64,000 bases of DNA from a virus (Duplodnaviria; Caudoviricetes), in the IMG/VR virus record IMGVR_UViG_3300049982_000332, positions 916 through 64,915 of that record; one strand, 5' to 3'. The position numbers and the translations under genes are program-made. The notes under the pieces were generated by a model, which did not search any database, was not told the DNA's origin, and worked only from the letters and a program-made list of their open reading frames with translations. This document shows positions 15,465-64,000 of this stretch, one piece after another. The stretch's first letter is position 1; every line of letters begins with the position of its first letter.

Positions 15465-16541
15465 ATGGCCCGGATTCGATCCCTCAAGCCCGAGGCGTTC
15501 CAGTCGGAGACGTTGGCCAGCGTCTCGCTCGCCGCCGAGCGGACATTCTTCGGCCTATCCACTCAAGTCGACGACCGCGGCCGGATCGCTGACAAGCCGG
15601 CCGTCATCAACGGGGCGATCTGGGCTGTACGAGCCGAACGCGAACTCCACACCGCCAAGGATCTGGAGGCCGAGCTCGACGAGCTTGTCGCCGAGGAGGC
15701 GGTGTGTCGCTATGTCGGCTGCGACGGGAAGCGGTATCTGCACCTGGTGCGCTGGGACGACCACCAGAAGGTGGATCGGCCTGGGAAATCCCGACTGCCC
15801 CGTTGCTCGATGCACTCTCGCGAGGACTACTGCGGAAAGCACGAGGGTCCGTGCTCTCCTCGCGAGAGTCTCGCGAGGACTCGCGAGAGTGCATCGAGCC
15901 CTCGCGGCAGTGACGATGCGAACTCGCGAGCCCTCGATTCGCACCAAACCGGACAAAGCGAAGACACCCCTCCGTTGGGTGCTACTGGCGATCTGTCCAG
16001 GGAGGGCGAAATATCACGAGACGATAACGCCCCTAACGTTCACCTACTTGACCAGCAGAAAGAGTCAGCCTCGCGAGAGTCTCGCGAGCCCTCGATGCTG
16101 GATCTAGGATCTAGGACCTTGGATCGTGGATCTACTACTCCACCGACTCCTGCGGAGTCTGCCGCCTCCGGCGACGGAGTCTTGATCCACCTCCCGGTGT
16201 CGGAACCCGGCAACGACCGGAAGCCACCCGAGCTCGGGTCCGATCAAGACCTCGGCTTCGTCGCGTTCTGGGACGTCTACCCGCGCAAGGTGGGCAAACC
16301 CAGCGCCCGCGCCGCCTGGAAGAAAGCCGTCGGCAAAGCCCGAGCAGACCCGGCCGTCGTCATCGACGCCGCCAAGCGGTACGCCGCCAACCCGATGCGC
16401 CGCGCCCGCGGCCTGGAGTACACCGCGCACCCGGCCACCTGGCTGAACGACGAGCGCTACAACGACCAACCCGACCAGGACGAAGCCCGCGGCTGGGACG
16501 ACGTCGAAGAGACCACGCCAGGGGAGTTCAACCGCCGATGA
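15465..16541 (+). CDS. Phage replication initiator (theta, lambda O/DnaD-like organisation)
   Basis: MARIRSLKPEAF N-terminus; C-terminal FWDVYPRKVGK..A..AW...HPATWLN; directly upstream of helicase. Confidence 0.85.
   Translation: MARIRSLKPEAFQSETLASVSLAAERTFFGLSTQVDDRGRIADKPAVINGAIWAVRAERELHTAKDLEAELDELVAEEAVCRYVGCDGKRYLHLVRWDDHQKVDRPGKSRLPRCSMHSREDYCGKHEGPCSPRESLARTRESASSPRGSDDANSRALDSHQTGQSEDTPPLGATGDLSREGEISRDDNAPNVHLLDQQKESASRESREPSMLDLGSRTLDRGSTTPPTPAESAASGDGVLIHLPVSEPGNDRKPPELGSDQDLGFVAFWDVYPRKVGKPSARAAWKKAVGKARADPAVVIDAAKRYAANPMRRARGLEYTAHPATWLNDERYNDQPDQDEARGWDDVEETTPGEFNRR
15817..16135. repeat. Iteron-like CTCGCGAG array (putative replication origin) inside initiator gene
   Basis: Seven perfect CTCGCGAG at 15817, 15859, 15870, 15880, 15923, 16070 and 16081, followed by GGA(T/C)C(T/G) units at about 7-bp period near 16100-16135. 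Confidence 0.7.
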
Positions 16542-50640: not shown

Positions 50641-51377
50641 GCGCGTCAGCGATGCTCGCCGCGGCACGCAAATCCCTGGGGCTGGCCGGCAGGCCCAACT
50701 ACATCACCCGCGAGTACGCGTCCCGGAACGGCAACGTCTTCCTGGCCGCGCCATGGTGCGACCAGGCGGTGACGTACTGGGCCCGGCACAGCGGCAACGC
50801 CGCGGCGGTCCTTCCGAAGGGGGACCGGGCGTTCACAGTGTGGCATGCCGGGGACGGGCAGGCGCTGGGCCGATGGCACGCCGGGACCGTGGAGAACATC
50901 AAGGCGCACGCCACCCCCGGGTGCCCGATCTTCTTCGACTGGGACGGCAGCAACACCATCGGGGCGATCGACCACATCGGGGTCATCGAGAAGGTCCTGT
51001 CGGATGGCCGGGTGCAGACCATCGAGGCCAACACCGGGGACGCGGTCAAACGGCGTGTCCGCTCGGCCAGCGTCATCGCCGGCTTCTGGAACCCCGACTA
51101 CGGCGACGTGACCGCCGCCGCCGCGCACGCGAAAACCTGGATGGAGGAGCTCGTGGACAAGCTGCCCTTGTTGAAGCCGGGCGCGAAGGGCTGGGCGGTG
51201 AAGCGGGCGTTCTACCTGCTGATCGCCAACGGCTTCGCCCTGGACCCGAAGGTCGTGAAGGACACCGAGTACACCAAGGCGATGCAGGCGAAGGTCGCCG
51301 AGTTCCAGAAGGCCAAGAAGTTGAAGGCCGATAAAGAGATCGGCTCCCTGACGTGGACGGCCCTGATCGTTCCCTGA
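50637..51377 (+). CDS. Endolysin: CHAP domain plus peptidoglycan-binding domain
   Basis: PWCDQAV (Cys), DHIGVIE (His), IEANT; C-terminal LKPGAKG..VK...FQ..KKL.AD.EIG..TW.AL. Confidence 0.88.
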   Translation: MSASAMLAAARKSLGLAGRPNYITREYASRNGNVFLAAPWCDQAVTYWARHSGNAAAVLPKGDRAFTVWHAGDGQALGRWHAGTVENIKAHATPGCPIFFDWDGSNTIGAIDHIGVIEKVLSDGRVQTIEANTGDAVKRRVRSASVIAGFWNPDYGDVTAAAAHAKTWMEELVDKLPLLKPGAKGWAVKRAFYLLIANGFALDPKVVKDTEYTKAMQAKVAEFQKAKKLKADKEIGSLTWTALIVP

Positions 51378-51469
51378 CCTGGCCCGCGTGGATCCCCTGA
51401 TCTCCGGCGCGCAACTCCCGTCGCTGCGCCGAGCGCTCCACCACCTCGAGGGAGTGGAGCACCCCCAAG

Positions 51470-51492
51470 AGCCCCCGCGTGTCGGGGGCTTT
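51470..51492 (+). terminator. Hairpin between lysin and holin
   Basis: AGCCCCCG/CGGGGGCT stem followed by TT. Confidence 0.5.
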
Positions 51493-51513
51493 GTCATGCA
51501 ACGGAGGTTGCGC

Positions 51514-51876
51514 ATGTCCAACAACGAACTCACAGGCGAGCCCGCCATCTGGGCTGCGCTCGCAGGCAGCTTCGTCCAGTTCCTCGCGGCGTTCTGGCTG
51601 CCCCTGGCGGACACTCAGGTCGCTGTCATCAACGCGGTCGTCATCGCCGCCGCAGGCGTGTGGGTGGCCTTCACCACGAAGAGCCTCGACAACGGCGGCA
51701 GCATCAAGTCCGCCCTGCTCGGCTTCACCAACGCCGGCATCTCCCTGGCGGTGACATTCGGCTGGCACGCCACAAACGCGCAGACGGCGGCACTCATGGG
51801 GTTCGTCGGCATGGCGACGGCGGTGTTCATCCGGCAGACGTCGCGCCCGAAGAGCGCGTACGGCTTGGCTGCCTGA
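51514..51876 (+). CDS. Holin
   Basis: GGAGG SD; four TM segments with an internal duplication; basic C-terminus. Confidence 0.7.
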   Translation: MSNNELTGEPAIWAALAGSFVQFLAAFWLPLADTQVAVINAVVIAAAGVWVAFTTKSLDNGGSIKSALLGFTNAGISLAVTFGWHATNAQTAALMGFVGMATAVFIRQTSRPKSAYGLAA

Positions 51877-51933
51877 CCTCTGGTCGCGAACTCGCGTACG
51901 AGGTAGCCTACGAGATCCGACAAGCGGTAAGCG

Positions 51934-51974
51934 AACGGCCTCACCCTCTTCCCCTGCGGGAGGGTGGGGCCGTT
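51934..51974 (+). terminator. Terminator ending late operon
   Basis: AACGGCCTCACCCTC / GAGGGTGGGGCCGTT. Confidence 0.7.
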
Positions 51975-52105
51975 TCGTCATGTCCGCATGCGCCGGGAAA
52001 TCTGGGGCCCCAGGGGCGGGAGTTGGAACACTTCGCCCGACACGCCCGTTGGGGTGGTCAATGTCCCGATCCTGCCGGTTGGATCGTGACACGATCTAGA
52101 CATAG

Positions 52106-52166
52106 CCCCGGCGAGCGCTGAAGACGCTCCCGGGATCGGCCAACCCCTATCTGGGAAAGAGTTGAC
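52106..52166 (+). promoter_or_regulatory. Structured 5' leader, copy 2
   Basis: CCCCGGCGAGCG-ctgaaga-CGCTCCCGGG, then GGCCAAC...GAAAGAG-TTGAC-GTG. Confidence 0.65.
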
Positions 52167-52946
52167 GTGCCCGAAACTACCATTGACCTGCCAAGCAACC
52201 CCGGCGGGTCCCCCTTTGATGCGATCCGTCACGAAGAAGACGGCGTCGAGTACTGGCTGGCCCGCGAACTCCAGTCGGTCATGGGCTACGAGAAGTGGGA
52301 ACGCTTCGAAGGCGTGATCGACAGAGCCATCCGGTCCGCCGAGAACACGGGAACGTACTCCGACCAGGCGTTTTCCCGGATCCGGGAAGTCGGACAAATC
52401 GGACAGTCGACGGGTGCACGGATCGACTACCGTCTGAGCCGCTACGCCGCCTACCTCGTGGCCATGAACGGCGACCCCAACAAGCCCCAGGTGGCCGCTG
52501 CTCAGGCGTACTTCGCCATTCGCACCCACGAGGCCGAGGCCGCCACCACCAAGCCGATGTCCGAGCTGGAGGTGGCGCGGAAGTACGTCGCCGTCCTGGA
52601 GCGCGAGCAACTGCTCTCTCGCGAGCTGGAGGTGGTCAAGCCGAAGGCCAGCAAGTGGGACGCCTACATCAACAGCGACGGCCTCATCGGCATGCGCGAG
52701 CTCGCCGACATCCTGAAGACCAGCGTGAACGCCCTCACTAGCTGGCTGGTGGAAGTCAACCTGTTCCGCCGGGCGGTCTCCCGGGGTGGCGGCGGACGGA
52801 ACCTCCCGCGGACGACCAGTCAGAACTCCGGGCACTTCGAGGTGAAAACCGAGACGGCCAACGGCGTGGTCTTCCCTGTCGCATACGCCACACCGCAGGG
52901 GGTAGACCTCGTGGTCGACCTGTGGGGGCGTCGCACCGACGCCTGA
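52167..52946 (+). CDS. Phage antirepressor (BRO/DinD-like N-terminus plus KilAC/ANT C-terminus)
   Basis: SPFDAIR...EYWLARELQSVMGY.KWERF...LSRYAAYLVAMNGDP; KPKASKWDAYINSDG...MRELA. Confidence 0.88.
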   Translation: MPETTIDLPSNPGGSPFDAIRHEEDGVEYWLARELQSVMGYEKWERFEGVIDRAIRSAENTGTYSDQAFSRIREVGQIGQSTGARIDYRLSRYAAYLVAMNGDPNKPQVAAAQAYFAIRTHEAEAATTKPMSELEVARKYVAVLEREQLLSRELEVVKPKASKWDAYINSDGLIGMRELADILKTSVNALTSWLVEVNLFRRAVSRGGGGRNLPRTTSQNSGHFEVKTETANGVVFPVAYATPQGVDLVVDLWGRRTDA

Positions 52947-52958
52947 CCGATCCGTCCG

Positions 52959-52994
52959 AGCGCCCGCGTTCACCTTCGGGTGGGCGGGGGCGCT
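52959..52994 (+). terminator. Hairpin terminator after antirepressor
   Basis: AGCGCCC...CACC-TTCG-GGTG...GGGCGCT. Confidence 0.6.
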
Positions 52995-53173
52995 TCCTCG
53001 TGTTCGCGGGCGAGCCGTTCGGCCTCGGCGTGGAGCGCCCACGTCAGGAGCAAGGCCAGGCGCAGATCAGGGTCTTCGGGAGCGTGCATGGTGGTGCCTC
53101 CACCAAATGGGACGCACCGGAAACCCGGGAAGTTGCCCGCCCGAACCGAACCGCTATCGCAGGGCACGACAAC

Positions 53174-53201
53174 GCCCCGCCACCCGGAGCGGTGACGGGG
53201 C
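53174..53201 (-). terminator. Hairpin ending the leftward transfer/resolvase transcript
   Basis: GCCCCG(C/T)CACC stem downstream of resolvase stop. Confidence 0.55.
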
Positions 53202-53285
53202 TGTACGAAAACGCTCGGCTGCGGACTCCCGGACACCTGCCGTACCTGTCTTGCGGCGCGACCCGTGCGGAACCCGTGACCGGAA

Positions 53286-53882
53286 TCAAGCTCGCACCGA
53301 ACCCGCAGGCGACGGCATGCGAGACTCCCGGTTGGCCAGCTCCCGGTACACGGTCGCCCTCGAGGTCCCCAGCGTCTCGGCGACCTCGGCCACCGTGTGC
53401 TCGCGCGAGTCGTACATCCGGTACAGCGTCAGCACCTGCCGCGGGGTGAGCGACTTGCGCCGGCCGCCGTGACGGCCGCGAGCTCGCGCCGCGGCGAGAC
53501 CCGCCTGCGTCCGTTCGATGATGCGGTCCCGCTCGAACTCGGCCAGCGCGGCGAAGATGTGGAACACCAGCTTCCCGGTCGGGGTCGCGGTGTCGATGCC
53601 CTCGGTGAGACTGCGGAAGTGCACCCCCCGCTCGCGGAGCATCCCGACCGTGTCGATGAGGTGCTGCATCGACCGGCCGAGCCGGTCGAGCTTCCACACC
53701 ACCAGGGTGTCGCCGGGCCGGATCTGGTCGAGCAGGTTGTCCAGGTCCGGGCGCGCGGTCTTCGCCCCGGAGGCCACGTCGCTGAACGTCTTGTAGCACC
53801 CGGCCGCGTCCAGCGCGTCATGCTGCAGCGCCAGCTCTTGGTCAGGGGTGCTGACGCGCGCGTAGCCGAGCAGGTGGCCCAT
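53286..53882 (-). CDS. Serine resolvase/invertase (Tn3/Hin-type) with C-terminal HTH
   Basis: GYARVST..Q, VVWKLDRLGRS, AEFERDRIIERTQAGL.AARARG..GGR, GTSRATVYR. Confidence 0.95.
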   Translation of the reverse strand: MGHLLGYARVSTPDQELALQHDALDAAGCYKTFSDVASGAKTARPDLDNLLDQIRPGDTLVVWKLDRLGRSMQHLIDTVGMLRERGVHFRSLTEGIDTATPTGKLVFHIFAALAEFERDRIIERTQAGLAAARARGRHGGRRKSLTPRQVLTLYRMYDSREHTVAEVAETLGTSRATVYRELANRESRMPSPAGSVRA

Positions 53883-53999
53883 GGTGCTCCTTCGGGTGGG
53901 TTGGCCGACGTTGATTCCCGACGCGGGATACCGACGGCGGGGTCTTGCGGATTCTCTACGGGATCAGGGGCGTCGTCAGGGGATCGTTTGCCGACAGCG

Positions 54000-54308
54000 T
54001 CAAATCGCTGCGCCGACGGCGACCTCGAGGGAGCGGGCCGCCTGCGCCGGGTGGACCGGGATCACCGCCACCTCATCCCCCGGGCGGGCGCCGTACCCGG
54101 AGTCGCCCATGCCGTCGGCGATGACGAGCGCCTCCCGCGGGCCGGGGTCGACGGCCCAGCACGCCTCGACGATGAGCGGCCACTGACCGGCTACCTTCGT
54201 CGGCGTGGTGGCGGGGCGGGTGTAGAGCAGGCGCACCAGGCGGAAGCGGTTGCCGGACTCGAAGCGCATCACCAGTTCGTCGACCGTCATCACGATCGTG
54301 TCGGTCAT
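54000..54308 (-). CDS. Hypothetical protein
   Basis: Overlaps upstream stop; start moved to 54308. Confidence 0.55.
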   Translation of the reverse strand: MTDTIVMTVDELVMRFESGNRFRLVRLLYTRPATTPTKVAGQWPLIVEACWAVDPGPREALVIADGMGDSGYGARPGDEVAVIPVHPAQAARSLEVAVGAAI

Positions 54309-54532
54309 GACGATCCACCCAGGATCCGGCGCACGGCTCGCGCACGCGGTGTGCCCGCGGCGGCCTGCATGATCTCCTCGGCCCGCCCCGGCGGGAGGGT
54401 GCGGTGGTGGTGCCACTCGTCGAGTTCGTCGCTGGCCGCCGCGTACGCCTCATCGGTGGTGTCGCGGCAGCGGGCCTCGAGGTGGTCGATGATGAACGCT
54501 TCGCCGGCGTCAACGCCGGGGCGGGTTGCCAT
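54305..54532 (-). CDS. Hypothetical protein
   Basis: AAGGAG SD. Confidence 0.65.
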   Translation of the reverse strand: MATRPGVDAGEAFIIDHLEARCRDTTDEAYAAASDELDEWHHHRTLPPGRAEEIMQAAAGTPRARAVRRILGGSS

Positions 54533-54604
54533 GGTTCGCTCCTTGGGTCTTGAGGGAAGGGTGTCCCGCCCGCGGGGAAGACGGACGGGACGCGGGGGGA
54601 TGGG

Positions 54605-54781
54605 TCAGTCCTCGTAGTCGCCGCGGTTCAACTTGCTCGTGATGAGGTCGGCGTGGGCCTCGTACTGGCGGGCTGCGACGCGGTCACCCTTCTTGGCCGC
54701 TTTGGCGGCCTTGCCCTTGATCTCTCGCAGGGTCTTCTGGGCTTCGCTCTTCTTGGGGAGTCCGGACTGGAACAGCGGCAT
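54605..54781 (-). CDS. Small basic protein (58 aa, not in ORF track)
   Basis: AAGGAG SD; MPLFQSGLPKKSEAQK... Confidence 0.7.
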   Translation of the reverse strand: MPLFQSGLPKKSEAQKTLREIKGKAAKAAKKGDRVAARQYEAHADLITSKLNRGDYED

Positions 54782-54873
54782 GTTGTTCTCCTTCTAGGTG
54801 GGTTGTTCGTAGCGTCCTCCTCTGGGCCCGAGCGGGCGAGGCGGGACGCGGGGGATGGGTCAGGCGCGGGTGG

Positions 54874-54996
54874 TCATTCGTCGCCTGCGTCGACGTCGGT
54901 GACCACGATGGTGGCGCCGAGGCCGACGACGCAGCCGTCCATGACGAGCTCGCCGCCGAGGTTCACGACTCCGCCGTTGTTCACGATCCTGGGCAT
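54874..54996 (-). CDS. Small protein (40 aa)
   Basis: AAGGAG SD; MPRIVNNGGVVNLGG... Confidence 0.55.
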   Translation of the reverse strand: MPRIVNNGGVVNLGGELVMDGCVVGLGATIVVTDVDAGDE

Positions 54997-55082
54997 TCGG
55001 TTCTCCTTCAGGTTGGTGGAGCAGACGCTCCGGGCACCCGCGCGACCTTCCGGCCGGGCGAGTATCCGCAACAGCCGCACCG

Positions 55083-55313
55083 TCAGCGGGTCAGACCGGC
55101 CGCGTCACGCCAGCGCTGACCGGCACGCCCGTCCAAGGCGGTCGCCCGGTTGCTGACCTTCCGCAGGAACTCGGCGGCATCGACGTGCATCTGCGCCGCG
55201 GCGGCCAGGGCGTGCAGGCGCGGCCAGTCCTGGTCGTGGTACGCCTTCGGCATGTCGTCCATGTACGCCTGCATCGCGTCCAGGTGGTCGACGCAGTCGG
55301 GAAGCTTCGGCAT
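55083..55313 (-). CDS. Small helical protein
   Basis: GGAG SD; directly after translocase. Confidence 0.6.
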   Translation of the reverse strand: MPKLPDCVDHLDAMQAYMDDMPKAYHDQDWPRLHALAAAAQMHVDAAEFLRKVSNRATALDGRAGQRWRDAAGLTR

Positions 55314-55327
55314 GGCGTCTCCAGAGT

Positions 55328-57274
55328 TCACGGGGCGATGAGCTGGTAGAGGTCGCCGCGCTGCTGCACGACGTCGGCGCGGATCAGCGTGCGGAGCGCG
55401 GCGGGGACTTCGGCGAGCTGGACGTCGCCGATGGCACGCTGGACGGCCACGCAGACGGTGCCGACCTCCAGCGGTTTGCCGGCCGAGGCGAGGACCTGCT
55501 CGACGGCGGCCTGCACGTCGCCGGAGGTGTGGCGTGGCGTGCTCGGCTGGGCCGCGGTCTCGGGCGTGCGGCCGCGGGCGCTCTTGCGGCGCCACTCCTC
55601 CATGTAGCCGAGGGTCCGGTCGCCGAGCAGGCCGGCGGCCGGGGTGGAGGCGATGCCGAACGCGTCGCGGACCGGCATCATGCGCAGCGTCGCGGCGGGT
55701 CGCCGGTCGACGCCGGCGGTGTAGCCCAGGCCGTGGGTCTTGGAGCCGTCGCGGAAGTACTCGGGCAGTTTGGACGGGTCGGCGGGCAGGCCGACCATCT
55801 GGTGGTCGGTGCTGGACCCGGTGCGCAGCGCGGTGAGGCTGCCGCCGGAGATCAGGTTGGAGCGGAACGACTGGGAGTTGGCGAAGTTGTCCAAGCCGAG
55901 GTTCTGGTTGACCACCAGCAGGCTGCCGCCCGCCTTGCGCCAGGTGCGGACGCCGGTGGACAGCAATTCGAAGCCGAGTTTGCCGTACGGCCCGTCGAGG
56001 AACAGTTTCAGCTCCTCCGCGCACACCATGAGCATGCTCATGCCGCCCATGTCGGCATCGCCGGGCAGCAGGAACGGCTTGCCGCGTCGTTCCCGGCCTT
56101 GGGTGTCGGCCCAGGGGGCGTGGGCGACGTAGTCGGCGCGGCGAACCATGACGTAGTCGAGCATCTGCAGGTAGGCGTAGGTGGCCTCGTGGCCCTCGCC
56201 GTAGATCGGGGTGCGGCCCGACCAGTCCGGCTGGGAGCTGCCCGACTGCGGGTCCAGCAGCGCCGTGGCCACCAGCGGGCAGCGGTGGGCCAGCGCCAGC
56301 AGCCCGGAGACGTGGTTCGACTTACCGGACCCGGTGTCGCCTGCGATGACGCCCATCTGCGCCCCGCTGGACGTGGTCCAGAACTGCCGGTGGGCTGGGG
56401 CCAGGTCGAAGTAACGGCCGATCTGCGCGATGCCGGTCTGCGGGTCGATGGCCGCGCCGGAGTCCTCCAGCCATGCCGTGGCTGTCAGGTTCTGGTCGGA
56501 GCGGATCACGGTGACCCGCGCCCGGGAGGCGTCGCCGTCGTCGACCTCTTCGACGGCGACTTGGGATGGGCGCACACGGTTGGCCGAGGCGATCGTCTCC
56601 ATGGCGTCGGCCGCCGACATCTTGCTGTACTTGGTGGGGCCCGGCTCGCCGACGATGATCCCGGTGTAGCCGTCGGGGACGGGCTCCACCTCGGCCAGGT
56701 GGGTCAGCTTGTACGCGGGGTTGTTGGGCACGACCCGCTCGGCCCACAGCGCCGCCTCGCGGCTGACCCTGGCCGAGGGTGCCTCGATCTCCCGCTGCGG
56801 GGCGCGGGCCGGGCGTCGCAGGACCCGCACCCAGAACGGGACCGAGGCGGCGAGCCCGACCGCCCACAACACCAGGACCACCCAGCCGTGTGGGCCGAGC
56901 AGGCTGGCCGTGGTCATCCACGCCGCCCCGGCGCCGACCGGAACCCACGGAAGGTCCCGGCCCGCGCGCTCGGCCCGGCCGAGCACCACCGCGGCTGCGG
57001 CGAGGATCAGCCCGGCGCGGATCAGCGGGTGCAGGCCCAACGCGAACAGCCACGCCGCGGCGTGAAGGGCGGCCAGCCACGCCACCGGCACCAGCAGGAC
57101 GGCTTTGCCCCGCTCGTGGTGGGCGATCTGCCGGGTCATGCGCCGGGCCGTCTCCGTGTGCCTGGCACGTCGGACTTCGGCCGCGGCTTCCGCCTTGACG
57201 CGGGCATCGCGCACCTCATCGGCCAGCACGCGGGCCGCGTACTGCTCGATGAAGTCGGTGTCGTGGCTGGACAT
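55328..57274 (-). CDS. traB: FtsK/SpoIIIE-family DNA translocase, TraB/Tra-like conjugation protein
   Basis: N-terminal TM cluster, Walker A GDTGSGKS, Walker B-like VCAEE, RKAG, C-terminal winged-helix-like domain; spd-like gene context. Confidence 0.8.
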   Translation of the reverse strand: MSSHDTDFIEQYAARVLADEVRDARVKAEAAAEVRRARHTETARRMTRQIAHHERGKAVLLVPVAWLAALHAAAWLFALGLHPLIRAGLILAAAAVVLGRAERAGRDLPWVPVGAGAAWMTTASLLGPHGWVVLVLWAVGLAASVPFWVRVLRRPARAPQREIEAPSARVSREAALWAERVVPNNPAYKLTHLAEVEPVPDGYTGIIVGEPGPTKYSKMSAADAMETIASANRVRPSQVAVEEVDDGDASRARVTVIRSDQNLTATAWLEDSGAAIDPQTGIAQIGRYFDLAPAHRQFWTTSSGAQMGVIAGDTGSGKSNHVSGLLALAHRCPLVATALLDPQSGSSQPDWSGRTPIYGEGHEATYAYLQMLDYVMVRRADYVAHAPWADTQGRERRGKPFLLPGDADMGGMSMLMVCAEELKLFLDGPYGKLGFELLSTGVRTWRKAGGSLLVVNQNLGLDNFANSQSFRSNLISGGSLTALRTGSSTDHQMVGLPADPSKLPEYFRDGSKTHGLGYTAGVDRRPAATLRMMPVRDAFGIASTPAAGLLGDRTLGYMEEWRRKSARGRTPETAAQPSTPRHTSGDVQAAVEQVLASAGKPLEVGTVCVAVQRAIGDVQLAEVPAALRTLIRADVVQQRGDLYQLIAP

Positions 57275-57286
57275 GGGTCGTCTCTC

Positions 57287-57979
57287 CTAGTTGTTGGCGA
57301 CTTCGAGCGCCCGCGCGGCGGTCCGCTGGGCCACCCCGGCCGCCTGGTTGAGCAGGTCCTGCATCACGGCGGAGTTGCCGATCAGATCGGAGTGCCCGGC
57401 GAGCACGTCCCGCATGGACGCGGCGAGGTTCTCGATGCCGGCCATTCGGGACTGCAGTTCGCCTGCCAGGTCGGAGTGGGCGGCGGCGTAGCTGGTGAGG
57501 CCTGCGGCTTCGGTTTGCACTTCGGGTTCCTCCTGATGGATTTCCGGCTCGGGTTCGGGCCGGGTGTTCTCGGGTTCCGGCCGGGGCTCAGGCTCCGGCT
57601 CGGGTCTGGGGGCGGACTCCGGTTCCGGGTCGTCGGCGATGACCTCGGCGTCGATCGGCTGGGCGTCCTGCCACTCGCGGTACCGCTGCCGTCCCGCCTG
57701 CCACGCTTCGCGGCGGATCCGGTTGGCCGCGGCGACCGTCTTGCCGGCCCCGTACGCCCCGGCCAGCGCCCACGACAACCACCGGCGCGGGTTCTTCCAC
57801 GACGGGTCACCCCGGCGCAGGCGTTCCTGGGCGAAGGTGTAGCCGTCGCGGAACTCGCGCACCGCCTGGGCTTTGCCCGCCTCCCACGCTCCGCCGGCGA
57901 ACGCGCGGGCGTCCGGACGGCGCCACAAGATGCCGCAGATGATCGCGGCGACGACCAGGGCGAACAGCAGCGCGGCCAT
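57287..57979 (-). CDS. Membrane-anchored protein with PE-rich linker and helical C-terminus (TraA/Spd-like position)
   Basis: TGATG coupling; N-terminal TM; directly upstream of traB-like gene. Confidence 0.7.
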   Translation of the reverse strand: MAALLFALVVAAIICGILWRRPDARAFAGGAWEAGKAQAVREFRDGYTFAQERLRRGDPSWKNPRRWLSWALAGAYGAGKTVAAANRIRREAWQAGRQRYREWQDAQPIDAEVIADDPEPESAPRPEPEPEPRPEPENTRPEPEPEIHQEEPEVQTEAAGLTSYAAAHSDLAGELQSRMAGIENLAASMRDVLAGHSDLIGNSAVMQDLLNQAAGVAQRTAARALEVANN

Positions 57980-58377
57980 CACCGGCTCACACGGGAGCTG
58001 ATGGTGTCGGCGTTGGTCTGGATCTGGTCGCCGATGTAGTTGAACGTCTGCGAACCGGTCAGCAGCAGCACCGCGATCAGCGAGGGGAGCGCGAACACGA
58101 ACCACGGGTAGTCGATCTTCCCGTCGCTGAGGTCGGCGACGACACCGATGCCGAACCCCGCGGTCAGAACCAGCGCGACGCCTCCGACGATGAGGACCAG
58201 GGTGAGGTTGCCGGCGAGCAGACCGGTCAGCCAGAAGGCGATGCCGACCAGGCCGAGCCCGGCGAGCACCATGAGGATCCCCTGGAGGATCGACCATTTG
58301 CGGCGCTTCTTGAGCTGCACCGCGGGATACAGGAAGACGGCAGTGACCAGCAGCCCCCCGAAGATGATTCCGATCAT
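57979..58377 (-). CDS. Four-TM membrane protein (Spd-like)
   Basis: Strongly hydrophobic; in transfer operon. Confidence 0.75.
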   Translation of the reverse strand: MIGIIFGGLLVTAVFLYPAVQLKKRRKWSILQGILMVLAGLGLVGIAFWLTGLLAGNLTLVLIVGGVALVLTAGFGIGVVADLSDGKIDYPWFVFALPSLIAVLLLTGSQTFNYIGDQIQTNADTISSRVSR

Positions 58378-58389
58378 GGCTGTGACCTT

Positions 58390-58848
58390 TCACATGAACA
58401 GGCTGATGACGAAGACGAGCAGGGCGCTCCCGGCCAGCAAGGACGGGTAGCTGATGACCAGCAGCAGCAGATGCGCGGCGGCGGTGACGGCGATGACGGG
58501 CGCCCCGTACAGGGCGTAGGGGACGCGCAGGATCAGGGCGTCGCGGATGTAGGGCTTGGGGTCGGTCCAGTACTGGCGGGCCAGGTCGGCGACCGGGCGG
58601 GGCCGCATGCCGAACGCGCCGTCTCCGATCCACGCCGCACGCCAGGTGGAGGTGAGACGCTCCTGCGCCGGCCGCAGCCGGTCGAACAGCCCCAGCCGTT
58701 CCAGAGCCTCCTCGGCCGTCTCGATGGCCGGATCCGATGCAGGGGGCGTCTCGACGGCGCCGCCCCTGAACGGCACCACGACATCGCTGGGCGCCGATTC
58801 CTCGTCGGCGGGGAGCTGTAGCTTGAACAGCCGGTCAGGCGCTGACAC
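58390..58848 (-). CDS. Membrane protein with two C-terminal TM segments (Spd-like)
   Basis: Hydrophobic C-terminus; in transfer operon. Confidence 0.7.
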   Translation of the reverse strand: MSAPDRLFKLQLPADEESAPSDVVVPFRGGAVETPPASDPAIETAEEALERLGLFDRLRPAQERLTSTWRAAWIGDGAFGMRPRPVADLARQYWTDPKPYIRDALILRVPYALYGAPVIAVTAAAHLLLLVISYPSLLAGSALLVFVISLFM

Positions 58849-59107
58849 GGGACCTGCCTCCTCTCTGCCCCATCAACTGGGCGTGGTGCTTGTCGTTGAG
58901 TTCGCCTGCGAAGTCGATGAGCTGCTGGGCGAGGGCGACCCCCTGCTCGTGCGCCCTGGCGGGGTCCCGGCGGTCCAGCGACTTGAGCTCGGCCGTCACC
59001 CACCAGGCCGCCCACCAGAACCGCAGGACGCCGTTGCGCTGGGCGCGGATGCGGTTCAGGTGGAAGGCCTTGCGGGTCTGGGGGCCGGTCTGACGCTTCT
59101 CGGACAA
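58835..59107 (-). CDS. Hypothetical protein
   Basis: GAGGAG SD before TTG. Confidence 0.65.
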   Translation of the reverse strand: MSEKRQTGPQTRKAFHLNRIRAQRNGVLRFWWAAWWVTAELKSLDRRDPARAHEQGVALAQQLIDFAGELNDKHHAQLMGQRGGRSRVSA

Positions 59108-59233
59108 CGACGCTCCTCGGTTACGGAAAGTGGTGACGGTGGCGGCTGGTTATACTCGCGCGCGCGTTACGCTCCGGTGCGCGTTACGTAACGCATCTGC
59201 GCGTTGGAGGCGCTCGGAGGCGTCCGGCGGCCA

Positions 59234-59692
59234 TCACGCACCTCCACGGACGATCAGCACGGTCGACACGAGGGAGACGGCCAGCGCGCCGAGCAGCAGA
59301 TCCACGGCGACCTGGATGACCCGGTGTTTGGTGCGGGCCAGCCTCGACAGGACGACCAGCTCGGCGATCCGGTCCCGCTCGTATTCGACGGCGGGCCGCC
59401 CGGCCAGTAGGTCGGGGGAGGTGTGGGCGTAGACGACCCACCCGGCGCCCTCGCCGCGCCGGGGGAGGGAGGGGCGGACGGCGTACAGGAGTACGGCGAC
59501 GCCGGCGACGAGCAGGATGACGGCCGCCCACAGCGTGTACTGCGCCGGGGATGGCAGGTGGGGGGTGCCGAGGGCGGCGGCTGCGGCGCCGACGCTGGCC
59601 GCGGTCCCGGCGATACCGAGCAGGGTCGCTGCTTTGGTGTCGGCGCGGCCCAGTTCGGTGCGAACCGAGGCGAGCTCGTGGGGGACGTCCAT
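59234..59692 (-). CDS. DUF5706/Pycsar-effector-like three-TM membrane protein
   Basis: ELGRADTKAATLL...TM...AVRPSL...LSRLARTKHR...TM pattern. Confidence 0.75.
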   Translation of the reverse strand: MDVPHELASVRTELGRADTKAATLLGIAGTAASVGAAAAALGTPHLPSPAQYTLWAAVILLVAGVAVLLYAVRPSLPRRGEGAGWVVYAHTSPDLLAGRPAVEYERDRIAELVVLSRLARTKHRVIQVAVDLLLGALAVSLVSTVLIVRGGA

Positions 59693-59835
59693 CAGGTGGT
59701 CCTCCTGCAGGGGATGAGGGCGAACACCCGGACACACTCGGCGCAGTTGCGGGCAGAACCGGAGCCGTGGATGGGGCAGCGGGGGGTGTTCTCGGTGGTG
59801 TGGCGGCAGCCGCAGAGGGGGCACTGGTAGCGCAT
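59692..59835 (-). CDS. Small Cys-rich zinc-finger protein (47 aa)
   Basis: TGATG coupling at both ends; CPLCGC...C.H...CAEC. Confidence 0.65.
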   Translation of the reverse strand: MRYQCPLCGCRHTTENTPRCPIHGSGSARNCAECVRVFALIPCRRTT

Positions 59836-60836
59836 CAGGAGTCGCCTCCGGCCATGAACCTCTGGACCTCGCGCGCCTTGTCGACGCCGACACCGAGGGC
59901 CGTACGGATCTTGTGGACGCCCGGATTTTGGGTCAGCGCACCGGCGGCGATCATGTCGCGGACGTGGTCGGCGAGGACCTGTACCGGGGCTGTACTGAGG
60001 GTGTACCGGTCCGGGCCGTTGTCCCTGTACGCGGGGTGTACCGGGGGTGTACCGAAGGGTGTACTGCGCCACGGCACCGGAAGGTCGGCGATGATCTTCC
60101 AGAGGGTGGGCAGAACCCACACGGCGAGCACCGCGGCGACTGGGCCGAGGGAGTGCACGATCAGGCCGAGCGGGTCGAACGGGAGGACGAACGCTGGCCA
60201 GCAGTTCAGGGTCAACGTGAGGCCGAGGAGAACCAGCTCGACGCGGAACAGGCGCCGGCCCTCGTGGCTTTTGCGGTCCACGACCTTGCCACGGATCGCC
60301 GAGTACGCCTGCACGCCGACGGCGGCGAGCAGGGGGAGCGACAGAACGGCTTCGACACCGTAGGCGGCCCACCAGCCCAGGTCGGCCTGCTCGATGTCGA
60401 GGGCTTTGACGACGCTGGCCTGCACGCCGATGGAGGAGACCGCGAGGGCGATGCCCGCGGCGGCCATCGTCATGCGGGTGGTGATGCGCCGCACCTGGGC
60501 GTCGCGGTAGGCGAGCGCCGCGGGGTGCTGGGCGAGCTCGTGCAGTCGGGCGGCTTCCCAGGTGCGGCGGCGCAGCTTGCGGACCTTGGTGGTGTCGAGG
60601 GTGAACGGCGTCTCGTCGTCCTGCAGCTCGGCCAGAAGGTGCGCCTCGGCGACCTCCTCGCGTAGGGCGCGGACGCGTTTGGTCTCGCCGTCCATCTCGG
60701 GCTGCTCACGCACCGCGGGGAGGGAGGCAGACGTTACGGCGGCGGCTTCGGCCAGGTGGCCTTCGATCGCTGCCAGGCCCTGCTCGACCTCCCCGGGGGT
60801 GGGCTCGGGCTGCGGCTCTGGGGTGTCGCACGTCAT
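59835..60836 (-). CDS. DUF2637/SpdB-like multi-TM protein with C-terminal HTH
   Basis: ATGA coupling at 60836; four TM segments; PGVHKIRTALGVG.DKAREV HTH-like end. Confidence 0.7.
   Translation of the reverse strand: MTCDTPEPQPEPTPGEVEQGLAAIEGHLAEAAAVTSASLPAVREQPEMDGETKRVRALREEVAEAHLLAELQDDETPFTLDTTKVRKLRRRTWEAARLHELAQHPAALAYRDAQVRRITTRMTMAAAGIALAVSSIGVQASVVKALDIEQADLGWWAAYGVEAVLSLPLLAAVGVQAYSAIRGKVVDRKSHEGRRLFRVELVLLGLTLTLNCWPAFVLPFDPLGLIVHSLGPVAAVLAVWVLPTLWKIIADLPVPWRSTPFGTPPVHPAYRDNGPDRYTLSTAPVQVLADHVRDMIAAGALTQNPGVHKIRTALGVGVDKAREVQRFMAGGDS
59980..60064 (-). repeat. 11-bp-phased GTACACCC/GTACA array, candidate clt (TraB recognition sequences)
   Basis: Seven TGTAC cores at 59980, 59991, 60002, 60026, 60037, 60048 and 60060; four are perfect GGGTGTAC. 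Confidence 0.7.
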
Positions 60837-61036
60837 GCGATCTGCTCCGCTTCGATCTCGCGGCATGCCCGCAACAGGGGAAGGTGGTCGGCGAGGAAGT
60901 CCAGCACGGCGCGCTCCTGCTCCTCGGTCAGGTTGTCGAGAAACTCGCAGAACTGGGCGCGAGGGTTGTCGCTGGAGAGGACCAGGGACACGACCCTTCG
61001 ACCGTCCGCCTGGTCTTCTGGCTGCGGGGCGAACAT
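60833..61036 (-). CDS. Small acidic protein
   Basis: TGATG coupling. Confidence 0.6.
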   Translation of the reverse strand: MFAPQPEDQADGRRVVSLVLSSDNPRAQFCEFLDNLTEEQERAVLDFLADHLPLLRACREIEAEQIA

Positions 61037-61269
61037 CAGGACCTCGCCCGGTCAGGCAGGTCGATGGGCGCATCGGCGCGGGTTGTGAGGACAACAAGGA
61101 CATCAAGGAAGCGTTCAAAGGCCGCGATCTTCCGGGCCTGAACCGCGCGGTTTCGCTTCGAGCGGTCGCGCTTGCACGCCTTGCACTCCGAACAGCCCGT
61201 GTAGAAGGCGCTCTGCTCCCAGGGGCGCGAGCACGTGCGGCACGGGTCCTTCACTGGCGAACTCGACAT
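61036..61269 (-). CDS. Zinc-finger protein, first gene of leftward operon
   Basis: AGGAG SD before ATG 61269; CRTC...CSECKAC. Confidence 0.65.
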   Translation of the reverse strand: MSSSPVKDPCRTCSRPWEQSAFYTGCSECKACKRDRSKRNRAVQARKIAAFERFLDVLVVLTTRADAPIDLPDRARS

Positions 61270-61294
61270 CCCATCTCCTGACCATGAACGTTCC

Positions 61295-61336
61295 TTCATC
61301 TATGCGCATCTTCACGCATCAAGACGCATCCGTCAA
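61295..61336 (-). promoter_or_regulatory. Transfer-operon promoter with phased operator repeats
   Basis: TTGACG-17-GAAGAT on minus strand; CGCATC at 61305, 61315 and 61325 (10-bp period). Confidence 0.7.
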
Positions 61337-61482
61337 TGGTCAGTCAGGGGACAGGAGGGCGGTGCGCTTGCATAGACGCTGGTCAAGCGGAGATCGGGAA
61401 CGTTCTTGACCGCAATGCCGGATCGGGAGATCCTTGCAAGTGCACGCCTACGTGCGAATACTTACGCCTAAGGAGTACGCCC

Positions 61483-61707
61483 ATGGAGCGGTTCCGGAAG
61501 CTAGCTGGATCCCCCGGCAGCGACGGCCTCAACACCTGCCCGACCATCATCGAGGTGGTCGACAGCGAGGACCTCATCATCGTTCAAGGTCAACAGCTCG
61601 ACGCGGAGACGCGACGCAAGCTGAACATCCCGGACGGTGAAGACGCCGTCGTCGTACCGAAGGATCTCTACCTCCGAGGGGCGCACAGGCTGACGGAGGA
61701 TGAATGA
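61483..61707 (+). CDS. Small acidic partner protein of DUF6879 gene
   Basis: AAGGAG SD; CPTI...IIVQG...IPDGEDAVVVP. Confidence 0.75.
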   Translation: MERFRKLAGSPGSDGLNTCPTIIEVVDSEDLIIVQGQQLDAETRRKLNIPDGEDAVVVPKDLYLRGAHRLTEDE

Positions 61708-62231
61708 CGCCAGGAGATCTCTACCGCACGTGCCGAGCCTCGGCCTACCGGCTTGAGGTTCGGCAGCACTACATCGTCTCTGGGGACGCGGAGCGTCAGC
61801 GCGCCTTCCGCGCCGGGGAGCCGCTGCCGCCGCCACGGCAAGACAAGCAGGACGACCTTCGCCTCGTCGCCGGGCTACGGCAGGCGGGCAAGCAGATCGG
61901 CCGGGTGCACGTCGTATCCTGGCCGCTGTCCGACTACGTCCGCTACGAGCTCGCCGTGTACTCCGAGAACGTGGCGGCCGGCGAAGATGTGGCCATCGCC
62001 GATGTGTCGGCTCACCCTGACCTGGCCAGGCTGGACACGGACTTCGCCATCTTCGACGGCGAGACCGACGAACCCAGCGTGATCCTCTTCGACTACTCGC
62101 CAGAGGGTCGGCTGCTCGGCTATGGGCTTACCCGGGATCCTGGGGTCGTCAATCGCTGCTTGCGGCAGTACCAACTCGCCCGCGAGCATGCGGTCGCCCT
62201 GCAGGAGTTCACGGCGGCGCACCAGCAATGA
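61704..62231 (+). CDS. DUF6879-like protein
   Basis: SAYRLEVRQHY...RVHVVSWPLSDYVRYEL...GEDV...DFAIFD. Confidence 0.75.
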   Translation: MTPGDLYRTCRASAYRLEVRQHYIVSGDAERQRAFRAGEPLPPPRQDKQDDLRLVAGLRQAGKQIGRVHVVSWPLSDYVRYELAVYSENVAAGEDVAIADVSAHPDLARLDTDFAIFDGETDEPSVILFDYSPEGRLLGYGLTRDPGVVNRCLRQYQLAREHAVALQEFTAAHQQ

Positions 62232-63091
62232 GCGCCTTTCAGGACCGGCAGCGCGAGGAGCTCGCCGACGCGCTCAAACGGCTGCGAATCGCGTCGGGCC
62301 TGACCGGGTACCAGCTCGCCGAGCGGCTCAGCGTCGACCAAAGCACGGTCTCGAAGATCGAACGCAACAGGCAGCGGATCTCCCTCGCTCAGGTGGAATT
62401 GTGGTGCGACGCCACCGGCGCGCCCGCGGAACGTCGCAGTGAACTCCTGGCGCTGGCCGAGAACGTGCTCATGCGGCCCTCATCGTGGAACGCTGTGTCA
62501 ACTACGGGCTCGACGAATTTCCAGAGCGAGACGCAGCAGATGGAAGCCGAAGCCGGCGCGCTCAGCTTCTACCAGCCGGCCGCCATCCCGGGCCTGCTGC
62601 AGACGGCGACGTACGCCCGCCAGATCTTCTCCTCGGGGCCAGATGGGGTCCCGGCTGACGTGGCGGAGCGAGTCCTGGGGCGCTTGGAGCGTCAGCGCAT
62701 CCTCTACGACGAGCGGAAGCGGCTGCGGTTCGTCGTGCCGGAGGCCGTTCTCCGCTGGCCTTTCGGCCCGGTCGACGAGCACGCCGAGCAACTGGACCGG
62801 CTCGGCGAGATCCTCGGCCGGCCCAACGTCGATCTCCGGTTCCTGCCCATGGAGTCGAACCCGTACTGGCGGCTCGGCGGGTTCGTCCTGTTCGAGGACT
62901 TCGACGACCGGCCGCCGCTGGTGCACCTGGAACTGCTGAGCGGGCCGATCAACGTTGATGATCCGGATCAGGTCGGCATGTATCAACGGGTGTTCGGCAA
63001 GCTATTCGACGGGGCGGCGTCGGGTGACGCGGCCAAGGCGCTGCTGGCCCGCGTCATCGAGGACATGCGGCGAGGTAAACCCGAACTGTAG
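62228..63091 (+). CDS. XRE HTH plus DUF5753 transcriptional regulator (Scr1/WhiJ-like)
   Basis: LKRLRIASGLTGYQLA...STVSKIE; IPGLLQTATYARQIF...RLERQRIL. Confidence 0.9.
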   Translation: MSAFQDRQREELADALKRLRIASGLTGYQLAERLSVDQSTVSKIERNRQRISLAQVELWCDATGAPAERRSELLALAENVLMRPSSWNAVSTTGSTNFQSETQQMEAEAGALSFYQPAAIPGLLQTATYARQIFSSGPDGVPADVAERVLGRLERQRILYDERKRLRFVVPEAVLRWPFGPVDEHAEQLDRLGEILGRPNVDLRFLPMESNPYWRLGGFVLFEDFDDRPPLVHLELLSGPINVDDPDQVGMYQRVFGKLFDGAASGDAAKALLARVIEDMRRGKPEL

Positions 63092-63111
63092 AAGCCGCGT
63101 CTCACTTACCG

Positions 63112-63147
63112 GCGCCCCGTACCCCACCTTCCTGGGGTGCGGGGCGC
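63112..63147. terminator. Bidirectional hairpin between convergent genes
   Basis: GCGCCCCGTACCCCA-ccttcc-TGGGGTGCGGGGCGC. Confidence 0.75.
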
Positions 63148-63156
63148 TCGCACGTC

Positions 63157-63738
63157 CTACGGCAGGTCCACGGCTGTGATCTTCCAGGCGCACGGCGAGG
63201 TGACCTCGAGGTGGAAGGTGCCGGCCGAGTAGAGCGGCGTCTTGTCCTCCCCCTTGTCTGCGAGCACGTTGACCGCGACATCAACCATGTTGTTCTGCGC
63301 GTCTTGGATGGCGACGATGAAATTGCCTTTGATGCCGAAGTTCGCGCAGTCGAAGGTGTAGCGCAGCTCCCACGTCGCGTCGGCGGTGAACTGTGCGGTG
63401 TTCTTGGTGCCCGACCCCTCGGCGGATATCAGGACGACGGGCTCGGCCGGCTTGGACTGCTCCGTCTGCTGGGCGGGCTGCTCCGCGGGCTGCTCGGCCG
63501 CCTTGGGCTGATGCGAGGTGCGGGTCTCGGCTGGCGCGGCCACGGGCTGGGGGGTTCCGCTGCTGCCGATGACGGCGACGGCGGCTGTGCAACTGAGCAG
63601 AATCGCCAGGGGAAGGCCGACCACGAAGATCCAGAACAGCGGGCTCTTGCCATTCTTGGGCGGCGGGGAAGGATAGCCATACCCGGGAGGCGGGCCGTAG
63701 TGGGGTGGCTGACCGGGAGGACCTTGCTGGTACGCCAT
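63157..63738 (-). CDS. Membrane-anchored extracellular protein (Pro-rich N-terminus, TM, beta domain)
   Basis: PPG/YG-rich cytoplasmic tail, one TM, QP linker. Confidence 0.75.
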   Translation of the reverse strand: MAYQQGPPGQPPHYGPPPGYGYPSPPPKNGKSPLFWIFVVGLPLAILLSCTAAVAVIGSSGTPQPVAAPAETRTSHQPKAAEQPAEQPAQQTEQSKPAEPVVLISAEGSGTKNTAQFTADATWELRYTFDCANFGIKGNFIVAIQDAQNNMVDVAVNVLADKGEDKTPLYSAGTFHLEVTSPCAWKITAVDLP

Positions 63739-63910
63739 GGCTGACTCCGGGGGTGGCTGGCTGTGTCGTACCGTTGACGGATAGTGCGCCCCTGCGGGTT
63801 ACCGTGGTCACGGTCGGAAATCGGATCGTTAACGTTCCACTCCCGGGCAGTGTTGGTGGTATCCGTACATAGAGTGACCTAAATGTCAAGAACACACCTA
63901 TACTCCTGGT

Positions 63911-64000
63911 ATGCCTAAAGCTGCGATCTACTGTCGGCTCAGCTACGCCCCTGACGGCTCGGTGGAGAAGGTGGAACGCCAGGAAGCCGACTGCCGCCGG
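63911..64000 (+). CDS. int: Large serine integrase, N-terminal fragment (runs off window)
   Basis: MPKAAIYCRLS......VERQEADCR catalytic N-terminal motif. Confidence 0.8.
   Translation, partial: MPKAAIYCRLSYAPDGSVEKVERQEADCRR

Follow-up and report, generated by a model that had tools for sequence, protein, structure and literature searches.

A TraB-like DNA-transfer module in temperate phages of Streptosporangiaceae and its possible part in virion-independent spread

Phages and conjugative elements are usually seen as separate routes of gene flow. The subject of this study is a locus at which the two seem to be combined, namely a leftward operon in a 64,000-nucleotide stretch of phage DNA (hereafter the window), which corresponds to bases 916-64915 of the 64,915-bp IMG/VR record IMGVR_UViG_3300049982_000332, a soil metagenome sequence classed as a provirus and given a CheckV completeness of 89%. 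The operon encodes a TraB-like double-stranded DNA (dsDNA) translocase together with small membrane proteins and lies beside the lysis genes of a temperate phage. An initial annotation of this DNA had read it as an actinomycete-type conjugation system by which the phage genome would be transferred without virions.

A number of described systems invite comparison. The TraB/Tra proteins of Streptomyces (pSVH1 TraB, pIJ101 Tra; KilA) combine an N-terminal membrane part, an FtsK-fold ATPase and a winged helix, and they are encoded with small, translationally coupled membrane proteins; both features recur in the window. TraB loads on direct 8-bp repeats within the clt of its plasmid (PMC4447253, PMC4170104), and it was suggested earlier that SpdB2 homologues carried by actinophages might spread phage DNA (PMC4447253). 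The integrative and conjugative elements of actinomycetes (AICEs) measure 9-24 kb and are defined by the combination of Int, Rep (RepSA, RepAM or Prim-Pol) and Tra (PMC3218068). The window element resembles AICEs such as pSAM2, SLP1 and pMEA300 in being an integrated actinomycete element whose transfer would use a single FtsK-like Tra on dsDNA, but the record holds neither Prim-Pol nor integrase, the phage that carries it measures 65-81 kb and has head, tail, lysis and phage replication genes, and the element falls outside the AICE definition. A nearer precedent is pZL12, which the passage of PMC3583192 that cites Zhong 2010 gives as a Streptomyces phage with working tra genes, and to which may be added pSLE1 of S. 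leeuwenhoekii, a molecule with ParA/ParB (PMC4487206). A third case is PhiNon1 of N. gerenzanensis, found by PCR (polymerase chain reaction) to be both circular and integrated at tRNA-Val, with a copy number of 17; its authors, who compared it with pZL12, presented it as a plasmid-phage that has an ssgA-like gene, and TraB or transfer genes go unmentioned in the main text of their paper (PMC5431353).

The reading preferred here, to which a probability of roughly 0.6 is attached, is that the module is an integral part of a temperate, siphovirus-like prophage of Streptosporangiaceae (Nonomuraea/Streptosporangium relatives) and a diverged form of the Streptomyces dsDNA-transfer apparatus, used for virion-independent spread. 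A survey of Streptosporangiaceae yielded an ATPase homologue in 12 of 401 genomes, and the relatives most used for comparison are Streptosporangium sp. DT93 (G002) and Nonomuraea terrae (G001/G003); other genomes are cited below by number. The features of the module are as follows.

59835..60836, minus strand: SpdB2/DUF2637-like integral membrane protein of 333 aa, with four predicted transmembrane (TM) helices (residues 125-241), upstream of the ATPase
59975..60064, minus strand: candidate clt, seven same-strand 8-mers GTACAsss within the 3' part of the SpdB2-like gene
59234..59692, minus strand: PycTM-type membrane protein of 152 aa with three predicted TM helices (PF18967 7.7e-10; PADLOC PycTM 1e-8); 61% identical in G002
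58835..59107, minus strand: conserved soluble protein of 90 aa, 61-70% identical in G001 and G002, no family match
58390..58848, minus strand: protein of 152 aa with a predicted C-terminal TM helix, 52-60% identical in G001 and G002
57979..58377, minus strand: protein of 132 aa with four TM helices, 56-67% identical in G001 and G002 and 36% in G266
57287..57982, minus strand: protein of 231 aa in which a Pro/Glu-rich linker joins a predicted N-terminal TM anchor to a C-terminal domain; identity 59-60% in G001 and G002 and 34-38% in G266, G016, G048 and G306
55328..57274, minus strand: TraB-like dsDNA translocase of 648 aa with N-terminal TM helices, FtsK-fold ATPase and C-terminal winged helix, assigned by NCBIfam, profile and fold comparison
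55083..55313, minus strand: protein of 76 aa directly downstream of the ATPase, 42-44% identical at the equivalent position in G001 and G002

Searched as a single sequence, the ATPase had no match in Pfam, PHROGs or the PDB sequences, and its sole match in NCBIfam was plasmid_TraB (NF041214; 2.8e-8). A search of 1.84 billion representative proteins gave 373 clusters at E <= 0.001; the close clusters, 35 in number, are unnamed Nonomuraea/Streptosporangium proteins with no precomputed Pfam domain. An alignment of 72 family members was used for the profile and for residue conservation, and within it plasmid_TraB is matched by 50 members (best 3e-40), EccCa by 26 and FtsK by 5, while PF01580 is reached by 35. 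Five residues are invariant (G312, G317, K318, E421 and R446). The Walker A motif (GDTGSGKS, 312-319) and the Walker B motif (..AEE, with the acidic pair E420-E421) are intact, position 420 being D in 46 members and E in the other 26. When the family profile was compared with pIJ101 Tra by hhalign, the two matched at 98.8% probability (E 4e-17, 401 columns) over window residues 175-646, that is from a pre-ATPase domain through the winged helix; pIJ101 Tra is likewise 648 aa long, and the homology is nearly full length. Against PDB sequences the profile found EccC (2e-17, the best match), FtsK (1e-13), TcpA and HerA, and proteins with winged helices matched at residues 563-621. The AlphaFold model (predicted local distance difference test, pLDDT, 91.5) has a helix-helix-helix-hairpin at 584-645, and Foldseek placed FtsK motor domains first (E ~1e-12), followed by EccC and the TcpA coupling protein. 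Three N-terminal TM helices are predicted at residues 59-143. The description of the protein as a membrane-anchored FtsK-type ATPase with a C-terminal winged helix is thereby upheld, and the sequence and structure searches proposed for 55328-57274 group it with plasmid TraB/Tra rather than with FtsK or EccC. On sequence and model it is best described as a single-domain, membrane-anchored pump of FtsK fold with a presumptive DNA-reading winged helix, which is the TraB architecture, and it represents a TraB clade that escapes the standard domain models.

Five proteins encoded beside the ATPase are predicted to lie in the membrane, with 1-4 TM helices each. The initial annotation had counted a DUF2637/SpdB-like protein and four further membrane proteins. 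TM prediction agrees for the latter (57287-57982, 57979-58377, 58390-58848 and 59234-59692). The former assignment stands in part: the four TM helices and the operon position fit it, PF10935 (DUF2637) is matched by three of nine positional homologues (best 2.9e-7) and the PhiNon1 counterpart carries a DUF2637 annotation, but the window protein has no direct Pfam match, and its similarity to the positional homologue in G001 is weak (25% over 141 aa, E 9e-7). The five remaining partner genes (58835-59107, 58390-58848, 57979-58377, 57287-57982 and 55083-55313) are 42-70% identical beside the ATPase in G001 and G002. With the ATPase included, six genes keep their order at 42-71% amino acid identity across three prophages, those of the window, G001 and G002. 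This bears on the idea that the operon has lost its function and is decaying, as the remains of a captured plasmid transfer region, which might be supposed from the strong divergence of its proteins from named families and the want of Pfam matches. All its open reading frames (ORFs) are intact, with a third-position GC of 0.83-0.94, and the preserved catalytic motifs, the conserved gene order and the confident structure model all speak against decay, which we consider extremely unlikely.

Between the SpdB2-like gene and the conserved small genes lies a slot of variable content. It is occupied by the PycTM-type gene in the window and in G002, where it additionally holds a RapZ C-terminal-like protein (L012:12706-13149), and in G001 by a member of the SsgA family of sporulation/septation proteins (L009:5755-6162); in PhiNon1 an SsgA gene (L031:31201-31662) lies upstream of the DUF2637 gene. 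A possible identity of the PycTM-type protein with canonical KilB was considered and rejected, the two having no similarity. The SsgA-like genes in the operons of G001 and PhiNon1 lend some substance to the view that the module is a working DNA pump of intramycelial use only, passing phage DNA through septal cross-walls following infection or induction, or partitioning an episome into spores, with no mating between mycelia. The Spd proteins of pSVH1, together with TraB, drive intramycelial spreading, and PhiNon1 is a multicopy episome. Plasmid TraB performs both steps in pSVH1, however, and there is nothing in the sequence by which the two roles could be separated; moreover, the window slot holds a PycTM-type gene and not SsgA. 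A restriction to intramycelial movement is accordingly thought unlikely.

A quite different proposal would be that the operon serves lysogenic conversion and does not move phage DNA at all, its function being superinfection exclusion, defence, protein secretion of the EccC kind or envelope remodelling. Its position is in keeping with this, being a moron-rich arm between lysis genes and att that is transcribed in the opposite direction to the late genes; one member has an effector-type domain (PycTM), an AbiJ-like gene follows the ATPase in G016 and EccC is the best PDB sequence match. Against it, the window protein has a single ATPase domain and a putative DNA-binding winged helix where EccC has three ATPase domains, and its closest family is TraB, not EccC. 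PADLOC matched the PycTM-type gene alone and was blank for the ATPase and the other four partners, and the oriented 8-mer arrays described below would have no role in such functions. Lysogenic conversion is therefore regarded as an improbable explanation of the operon.

The repeat array in the 3' part of the SpdB2-like gene came to light by k-mer clustering. There are four exact copies of GTACACCC in 66 bp (59999-60064, on the coding, minus, strand), and the variants GTACAGGG, GTACAGCC and GTACAGGT bring the total to seven units, spaced 12, 11, 11, 24, 11 and 11 bp apart, which puts them in phase at about one turn of the helix. Exact copies of GTACACCC number four in the array as against two in the other 64 kb (Poisson P ~3e-13). 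The units occupy all three codon phases and the peptide that they encode is not repetitive. Outside the array GTACAsss shows a skew in orientation (26 vs 9), which was set aside as likely to reflect strand composition. In two soil metagenomes from a different study, contigs are shorter by exactly 12 bases at 60044, corresponding to one array unit, and the copy number of the array thus varies in nature with the reading frame kept. In six relatives the 3' part of the equivalent gene contains 6-40 repeats, of the following kinds.

G001: GCGACCG, 6-9 copies
G016, G266, G048 and G306: GCGGACGG, one mismatch allowed, 30-40 copies over ~650 nt
G297: GTCCGAGA, on either strand, 8 copies
L021:15600-16277, L020:3595-4260, L023:15880-16519 and L026:3443-4170: the tails built of GCGGACGG, one per genome in the four genomes

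The coding strand bears nearly all copies of GCGGACGG, which follow one another at 11-13 or 22-24 bp (P 1e-28 to 1e-43) and are read in three frames as ADG, GR and RTDG to give the low-complexity tail of the SpdB2-like protein. Because the one motif is read in all three frames, it is the DNA on which selection acts. The presence of an array at this place is conserved, and by its likeness to the direct 8-bp repeats of clt (PMC4447253) the GTACAsss array is a candidate clt that the winged helix of the pump may read. Its situation differs from that in TraB/Tra plasmids in that the repeats lie inside the spdB2-like coding sequence. A candidate array in PhiNon1 was discarded on proving to be two terminator-like hairpins.

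An important consideration is whether the module belongs to the phage, and the relatives are informative in this respect. Streptosporangium sp. DT93 (G002) has a syntenic prophage with 40-76% amino acid identity over the replication and structural genes (portal 62%, terminase 52%, tail proteins 67-69%, DnaN 58%); its ATPase is 71% identical to that of the window, and the partner genes and resolvase follow the lysis region in matching order. The whole insert, of ~81 kb and with the operon inside it, is flanked by the two halves of the host competence/recombination gene dprA, split at the SGG/AHGID motif into a 3' half at 82.2-82.8 kb and a 5' half at 163.9-164.6 kb, with junctions at C7:82,837 and 163,911 (L017, L016). 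The 5' half adjoins a large serine integrase that starts 16 nt from the junction, each junction has imperfect inverted arms, as a serine-integrase attP should, and a search within the insert for further copies of the junction (att) sequences found none. In Nonomuraea terrae (G001/G003) the module, at 55-70% identity, comes after the lysin of a different phage, the backbone of which in G001 comprises an SPP1-type portal, an E-type capsid, an Amidase_2 lysin and, at the far end, a tyrosine-integrase fragment. A third backbone is that of PhiNon1, a 59,257-bp circle (NZ_LT559120.1, 'plasmid III' in PLSDB) with portal, terminase, DnaN and lysin genes, in which an SsgA-like gene, a DUF2637 gene, small genes and a 654-aa ATPase are found between the lysin and an integrase remnant. 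Its ATPase is 35-36% identical to that of the window phage, and the two also share DnaN, a PAPS-reductase-like gene, the tape measure and a gene of the lysis region; the host belongs to the same bacterial family and small membrane proteins again accompany the pump, whereas integration is at tRNA-Val. Six further contexts of the ATPase were read. In G266, G016 and G289 there are tail or lysin genes beside the module. G306 has a lysin-type amidase at a distance of 12 kb and G297 a tyrosine integrase at 7 kb; in G048 no phage gene turned up as far as 20 kb from the module. In G016 a 507-aa protein with an AbiJ N-terminal domain is encoded directly after the ATPase (L022:1418-2941), at the prophage edge by host genes, and it is defence cargo of the prophage arm that carries the module. 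The module belongs to phage genomes: it follows the lysis genes in three or more phage backbones that are unrelated to one another, keeps this position under three different integration systems and, as had been asked of related prophages, lies inside the att ends in the dprA-bounded insert.

It could nevertheless be argued that the operon is an element in its own right, lying next to or within the prophage, such as a satellite, an AICE remnant or a mobile cassette using the resolvase. The boundaries of the record are computational provirus calls, the occurrence of the module on unrelated backbones means that it moves by recombination, a resolvase stands at its end in the window and in G002, and the surroundings of the module in G048 are as just described. 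In two soil metagenomes, furthermore, the flanks (46-53, 59.2-59.8 and 63.4-64 kb) are on contigs several hundred-fold deep while 53.2-59.2 kb is covered only by a ~94%-identical contig of 5.2 kb at 13-23x; this contrast may reflect an abundant variant in which the cassette is different or missing, which contig depths cannot prove. On the other side, the dprA halves of G002 enclose phage and module together, with no internal att copy and no second integrase, and the PhiNon1 circle holds both phage genes and module. Matches between att-like direct repeats around the operon in the window were at chance level, the position relative to the lysis genes is constant under the three integration systems and the resolvase is missing in G001 and PhiNon1. 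Nor does any att site or host gene separate the operon from the lysis genes beyond 52.9 kb, which the initial annotation had named as a sign of a separate element. Such an origin is judged very unlikely.

The same question was approached through the replication and integration genes of the record. Six-frame searches of all 64,915 bp gave no match to PF07508 or PF00589, and the single match to PF00239 is the 198-aa resolvase, so that the serine integrase reported earlier is present in neither the window nor the record. Of the placement of the operon between lysis/antirepressor genes and a serine integrase, only the first side holds for this DNA. Prim-Pol, ParA (AAA_31) and ParB_N were likewise found in none of the six frames, in agreement with the statement that the operon has no replicon of its own.

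With pZL12 and its kind the window phage shares the presence of portal, capsid, tape measure and lysin genes and an FtsK-like tra gene on one molecule (in the window, one contig). In pSLE1 the gene for a 774-aa Tra adjoins terminase and capsid genes, and this Tra is 27% identical to the window ATPase over 254 aa. Both pZL12 and pSLE1 are autonomous plasmids of ~86-90 kb, whereas the relative of the window phage in G002 is integrated in dprA. A RepA locus has reportedly been found on pZL12. The ParA/ParB pair of pSLE1 has no counterpart in the six frames of the window record, the Tra proteins of pZL12 and pSLE1 belong to different clades from the window ATPase, and no other operon gene is held in common. 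The citation of pZL12 as a partial precedent was thus apt in that it is a tra-bearing phage, yet one that is plasmid-borne and has a Tra of another clade. What sets the present case apart is an integrating prophage without partition genes and a separate, unannotated TraB clade, and also the full set of membrane partners, the candidate clt within a coding sequence and the exchange of the module among unrelated phage backbones. At least 15 plasmids of Streptomyces/Kitasatospora in PLSDB, of 88-94 kb, have a distant Tra match like that of pSLE1, which suggests that pZL12-like plasmid-phages form a family widespread in the public records of plasmids.

Several results weigh against the interpretation of the module as a phage-borne conjugation system and should be set beside it. 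The window ATPase is only ~20% identical to pIJ101 Tra, gave no match to PF01580 at E <= 0.1 and scores 32.8 bits against an equivalog cut-off of 800 for NF041214; because it falls below both thresholds it is taken as a member of a distant TraB clade and not as an equivalog. The 59835-60836 protein itself has no match to PF10935, and an hhalign comparison of the SpdB2-like alignment with pIJ101 SpdB (5% probability) showed no similarity. Neither megablast with the operon nor tblastn with the ATPase found a match in 50,697 phage records, and PhiNon1 is filed as a plasmid in its database. PhiNon1 and G289 showed no repeat array of this sort, that of G002 is weak, and since winged helices that resemble one another go with different repeat motifs in the window, G001 and G002, there is no clear co-variation of motif and reader. 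A more general difficulty is that export of dsDNA is non-conservative and requires prior replication of the excised phage, an event that normally leads to lysis.

These points notwithstanding, all of the computational tests that the initial annotation proposed favour conjugation, and virion-free transfer of the phage genome is plausible from the sequence data. The sequence of events would be as follows. Excision followed by phage-driven replication (linked to DnaB/DnaN), or else infection, would provide the phage genome as circular dsDNA, onto which the winged helix would load a hexamer-type pump at the 8-mer array. Through a channel that the Spd-like membrane proteins would help to form, the pump would then carry the phage genome, still double-stranded and unprocessed, past hyphal membranes or septal cross-walls, and the outcome would be virion-independent spread into neighbouring compartments or mating hyphae. 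Three elements of this scheme are inferred, namely that the pump binds the array, what its substrate is and that any DNA is transferred. A bolder and tentative proposal, rated at slightly short of even odds, is that there are 'conjugative prophages', lineage-spanning temperate actinophages with a TraB/Spd pump acting on an 8-mer array in coding sequence, for which direct passage of the double-stranded genome between or along hyphae would be a third transmission route beside lysis and vertical lysogeny, and whose pump could also mobilise host DNA with similar repeats.

The remaining features of the operon and its surroundings are listed here.

61704..63091, plus strand: divergent pair of DUF6879 and XRE/DUF5753 genes (PF21806 1.9e-42; PF19054 1.3e-40; HTH_31)
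61308..61336, minus strand: putative promoter TTGACG-17-GAAGAT, read from the sequence, upstream of the first operon gene
61291..61330, minus strand: candidate operator, four direct repeats in exactly 10-bp phase (GATGCG.... three times, then GATGAA), read from the sequence
61036..61269, minus strand: first operon gene, for a small Cys-rich protein (CxxC...CxxC) of ~77 aa, from the ORF list and third-position GC phase; family searches without match
60833..61036, minus strand: acidic protein of 67 aa whose start overlaps the stop of the preceding gene; no family match
54000..55080, minus strand: four small ORFs (54874-55080, 54605-54781, 54305-54532 and 54000-54308), from the ORF list and third-position GC phase; no family match and no conservation in G001 or G002
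53286..53882, minus strand: small serine recombinase of resolvase/invertase type, 198 aa, with a C-terminal helix-turn-helix (PF00239 9e-48, HTH_7)

Fifteen leftward ORFs run from 53286 to ~61300, and at 10 of the 14 junctions the neighbours overlap or leave no more than 14 nt between them, as expected of the single, tightly coupled operon first described. The promoter claimed for it is less secure. The motif is present (61336-61308, minus strand), but the -10 hexamer GAAGAT is weak, agreeing with TATAAT at 3/6 positions, and a consensus promoter scan made no call there. The GATGCG/GATGAA repeats overlie the spacer and -10 of this putative promoter and are a candidate operator to which a regulator may bind. 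The divergent gene pair possibly regulates the operon, and a homologous pair adjoins the operon in G016; TraB/Tra plasmids differ in having a GntR-type TraR/KorA neighbour, which the window lacks. The resolvase, correctly included in the operon by the initial annotation, is the last gene of the string and is preceded by a 117-bp gap. A homologue of 49% identity occupies the equivalent position in G002. G001 and the annotation of PhiNon1 have none, and the gene is therefore no fixed component of the module.

The rest of the window, the DNA of which has a G+C content of ~69%, is a phage backbone. Genes were called from third-position GC and the ORF list, as suits high-GC DNA, and every gene in 825-52946 is rightward. 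This block encodes a C5 methylase, an N6/N4 methylase, DnaN and a DnaB-type helicase, a Mu-type portal, a capsid protein, a 1105-aa tape measure and tail genes, and on the lysis side a lysin with CHAP and PG-binding domains and an Ant/Bro antirepressor; no tRNA gene was found in the window. A palindromic 10-mer, TCTCGCGAGA, occurs in 7 copies in 265 bp (15814-16081, by k-mer clustering), between a leftward two-gene cassette and a gene pair ending in the DnaB-type helicase, and is probably a phage replication origin or operator array. The phage genome is less than complete, contrary to what was first supposed. In addition to the completeness estimate given above, the gene beside the integrase in a relative is matched by the left end of the record, and the record is for that reason taken to be cut just short of the integrase end. 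A 20,410-bp contig from the probable source sample spans 55012-64000 and continues 11.4 kb past the right end of the window, so that the right end of the record is a computed provirus boundary and not the end of a contig. A Logan contig, also from the probable source sample, bridges 51008-55041, from the lysis side to the operon.

The finding is that a complete plasmid-type dsDNA transfer module with a candidate recognition site forms a conserved and exchangeable part of integrating phages in antibiotic-producing actinomycetes. Such hybrids of phage and transfer system are likely to be under-counted, because Pfam, PHROGs and the AICE/conjugation finders based on PF01580 miss this family. If bound as proposed, the arrays would be a clear case of DNA-binding repeats that shape the disordered region of a protein in three frames. 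PhiNon1, which is present in a cultured strain, offers a direct experimental system. If the preferred reading is true, phages could colonise a mycelium or its neighbour without particles, receptors or lysis, and this would change the view of host range, lysogenisation and phage-mediated gene transfer in filamentous bacteria.

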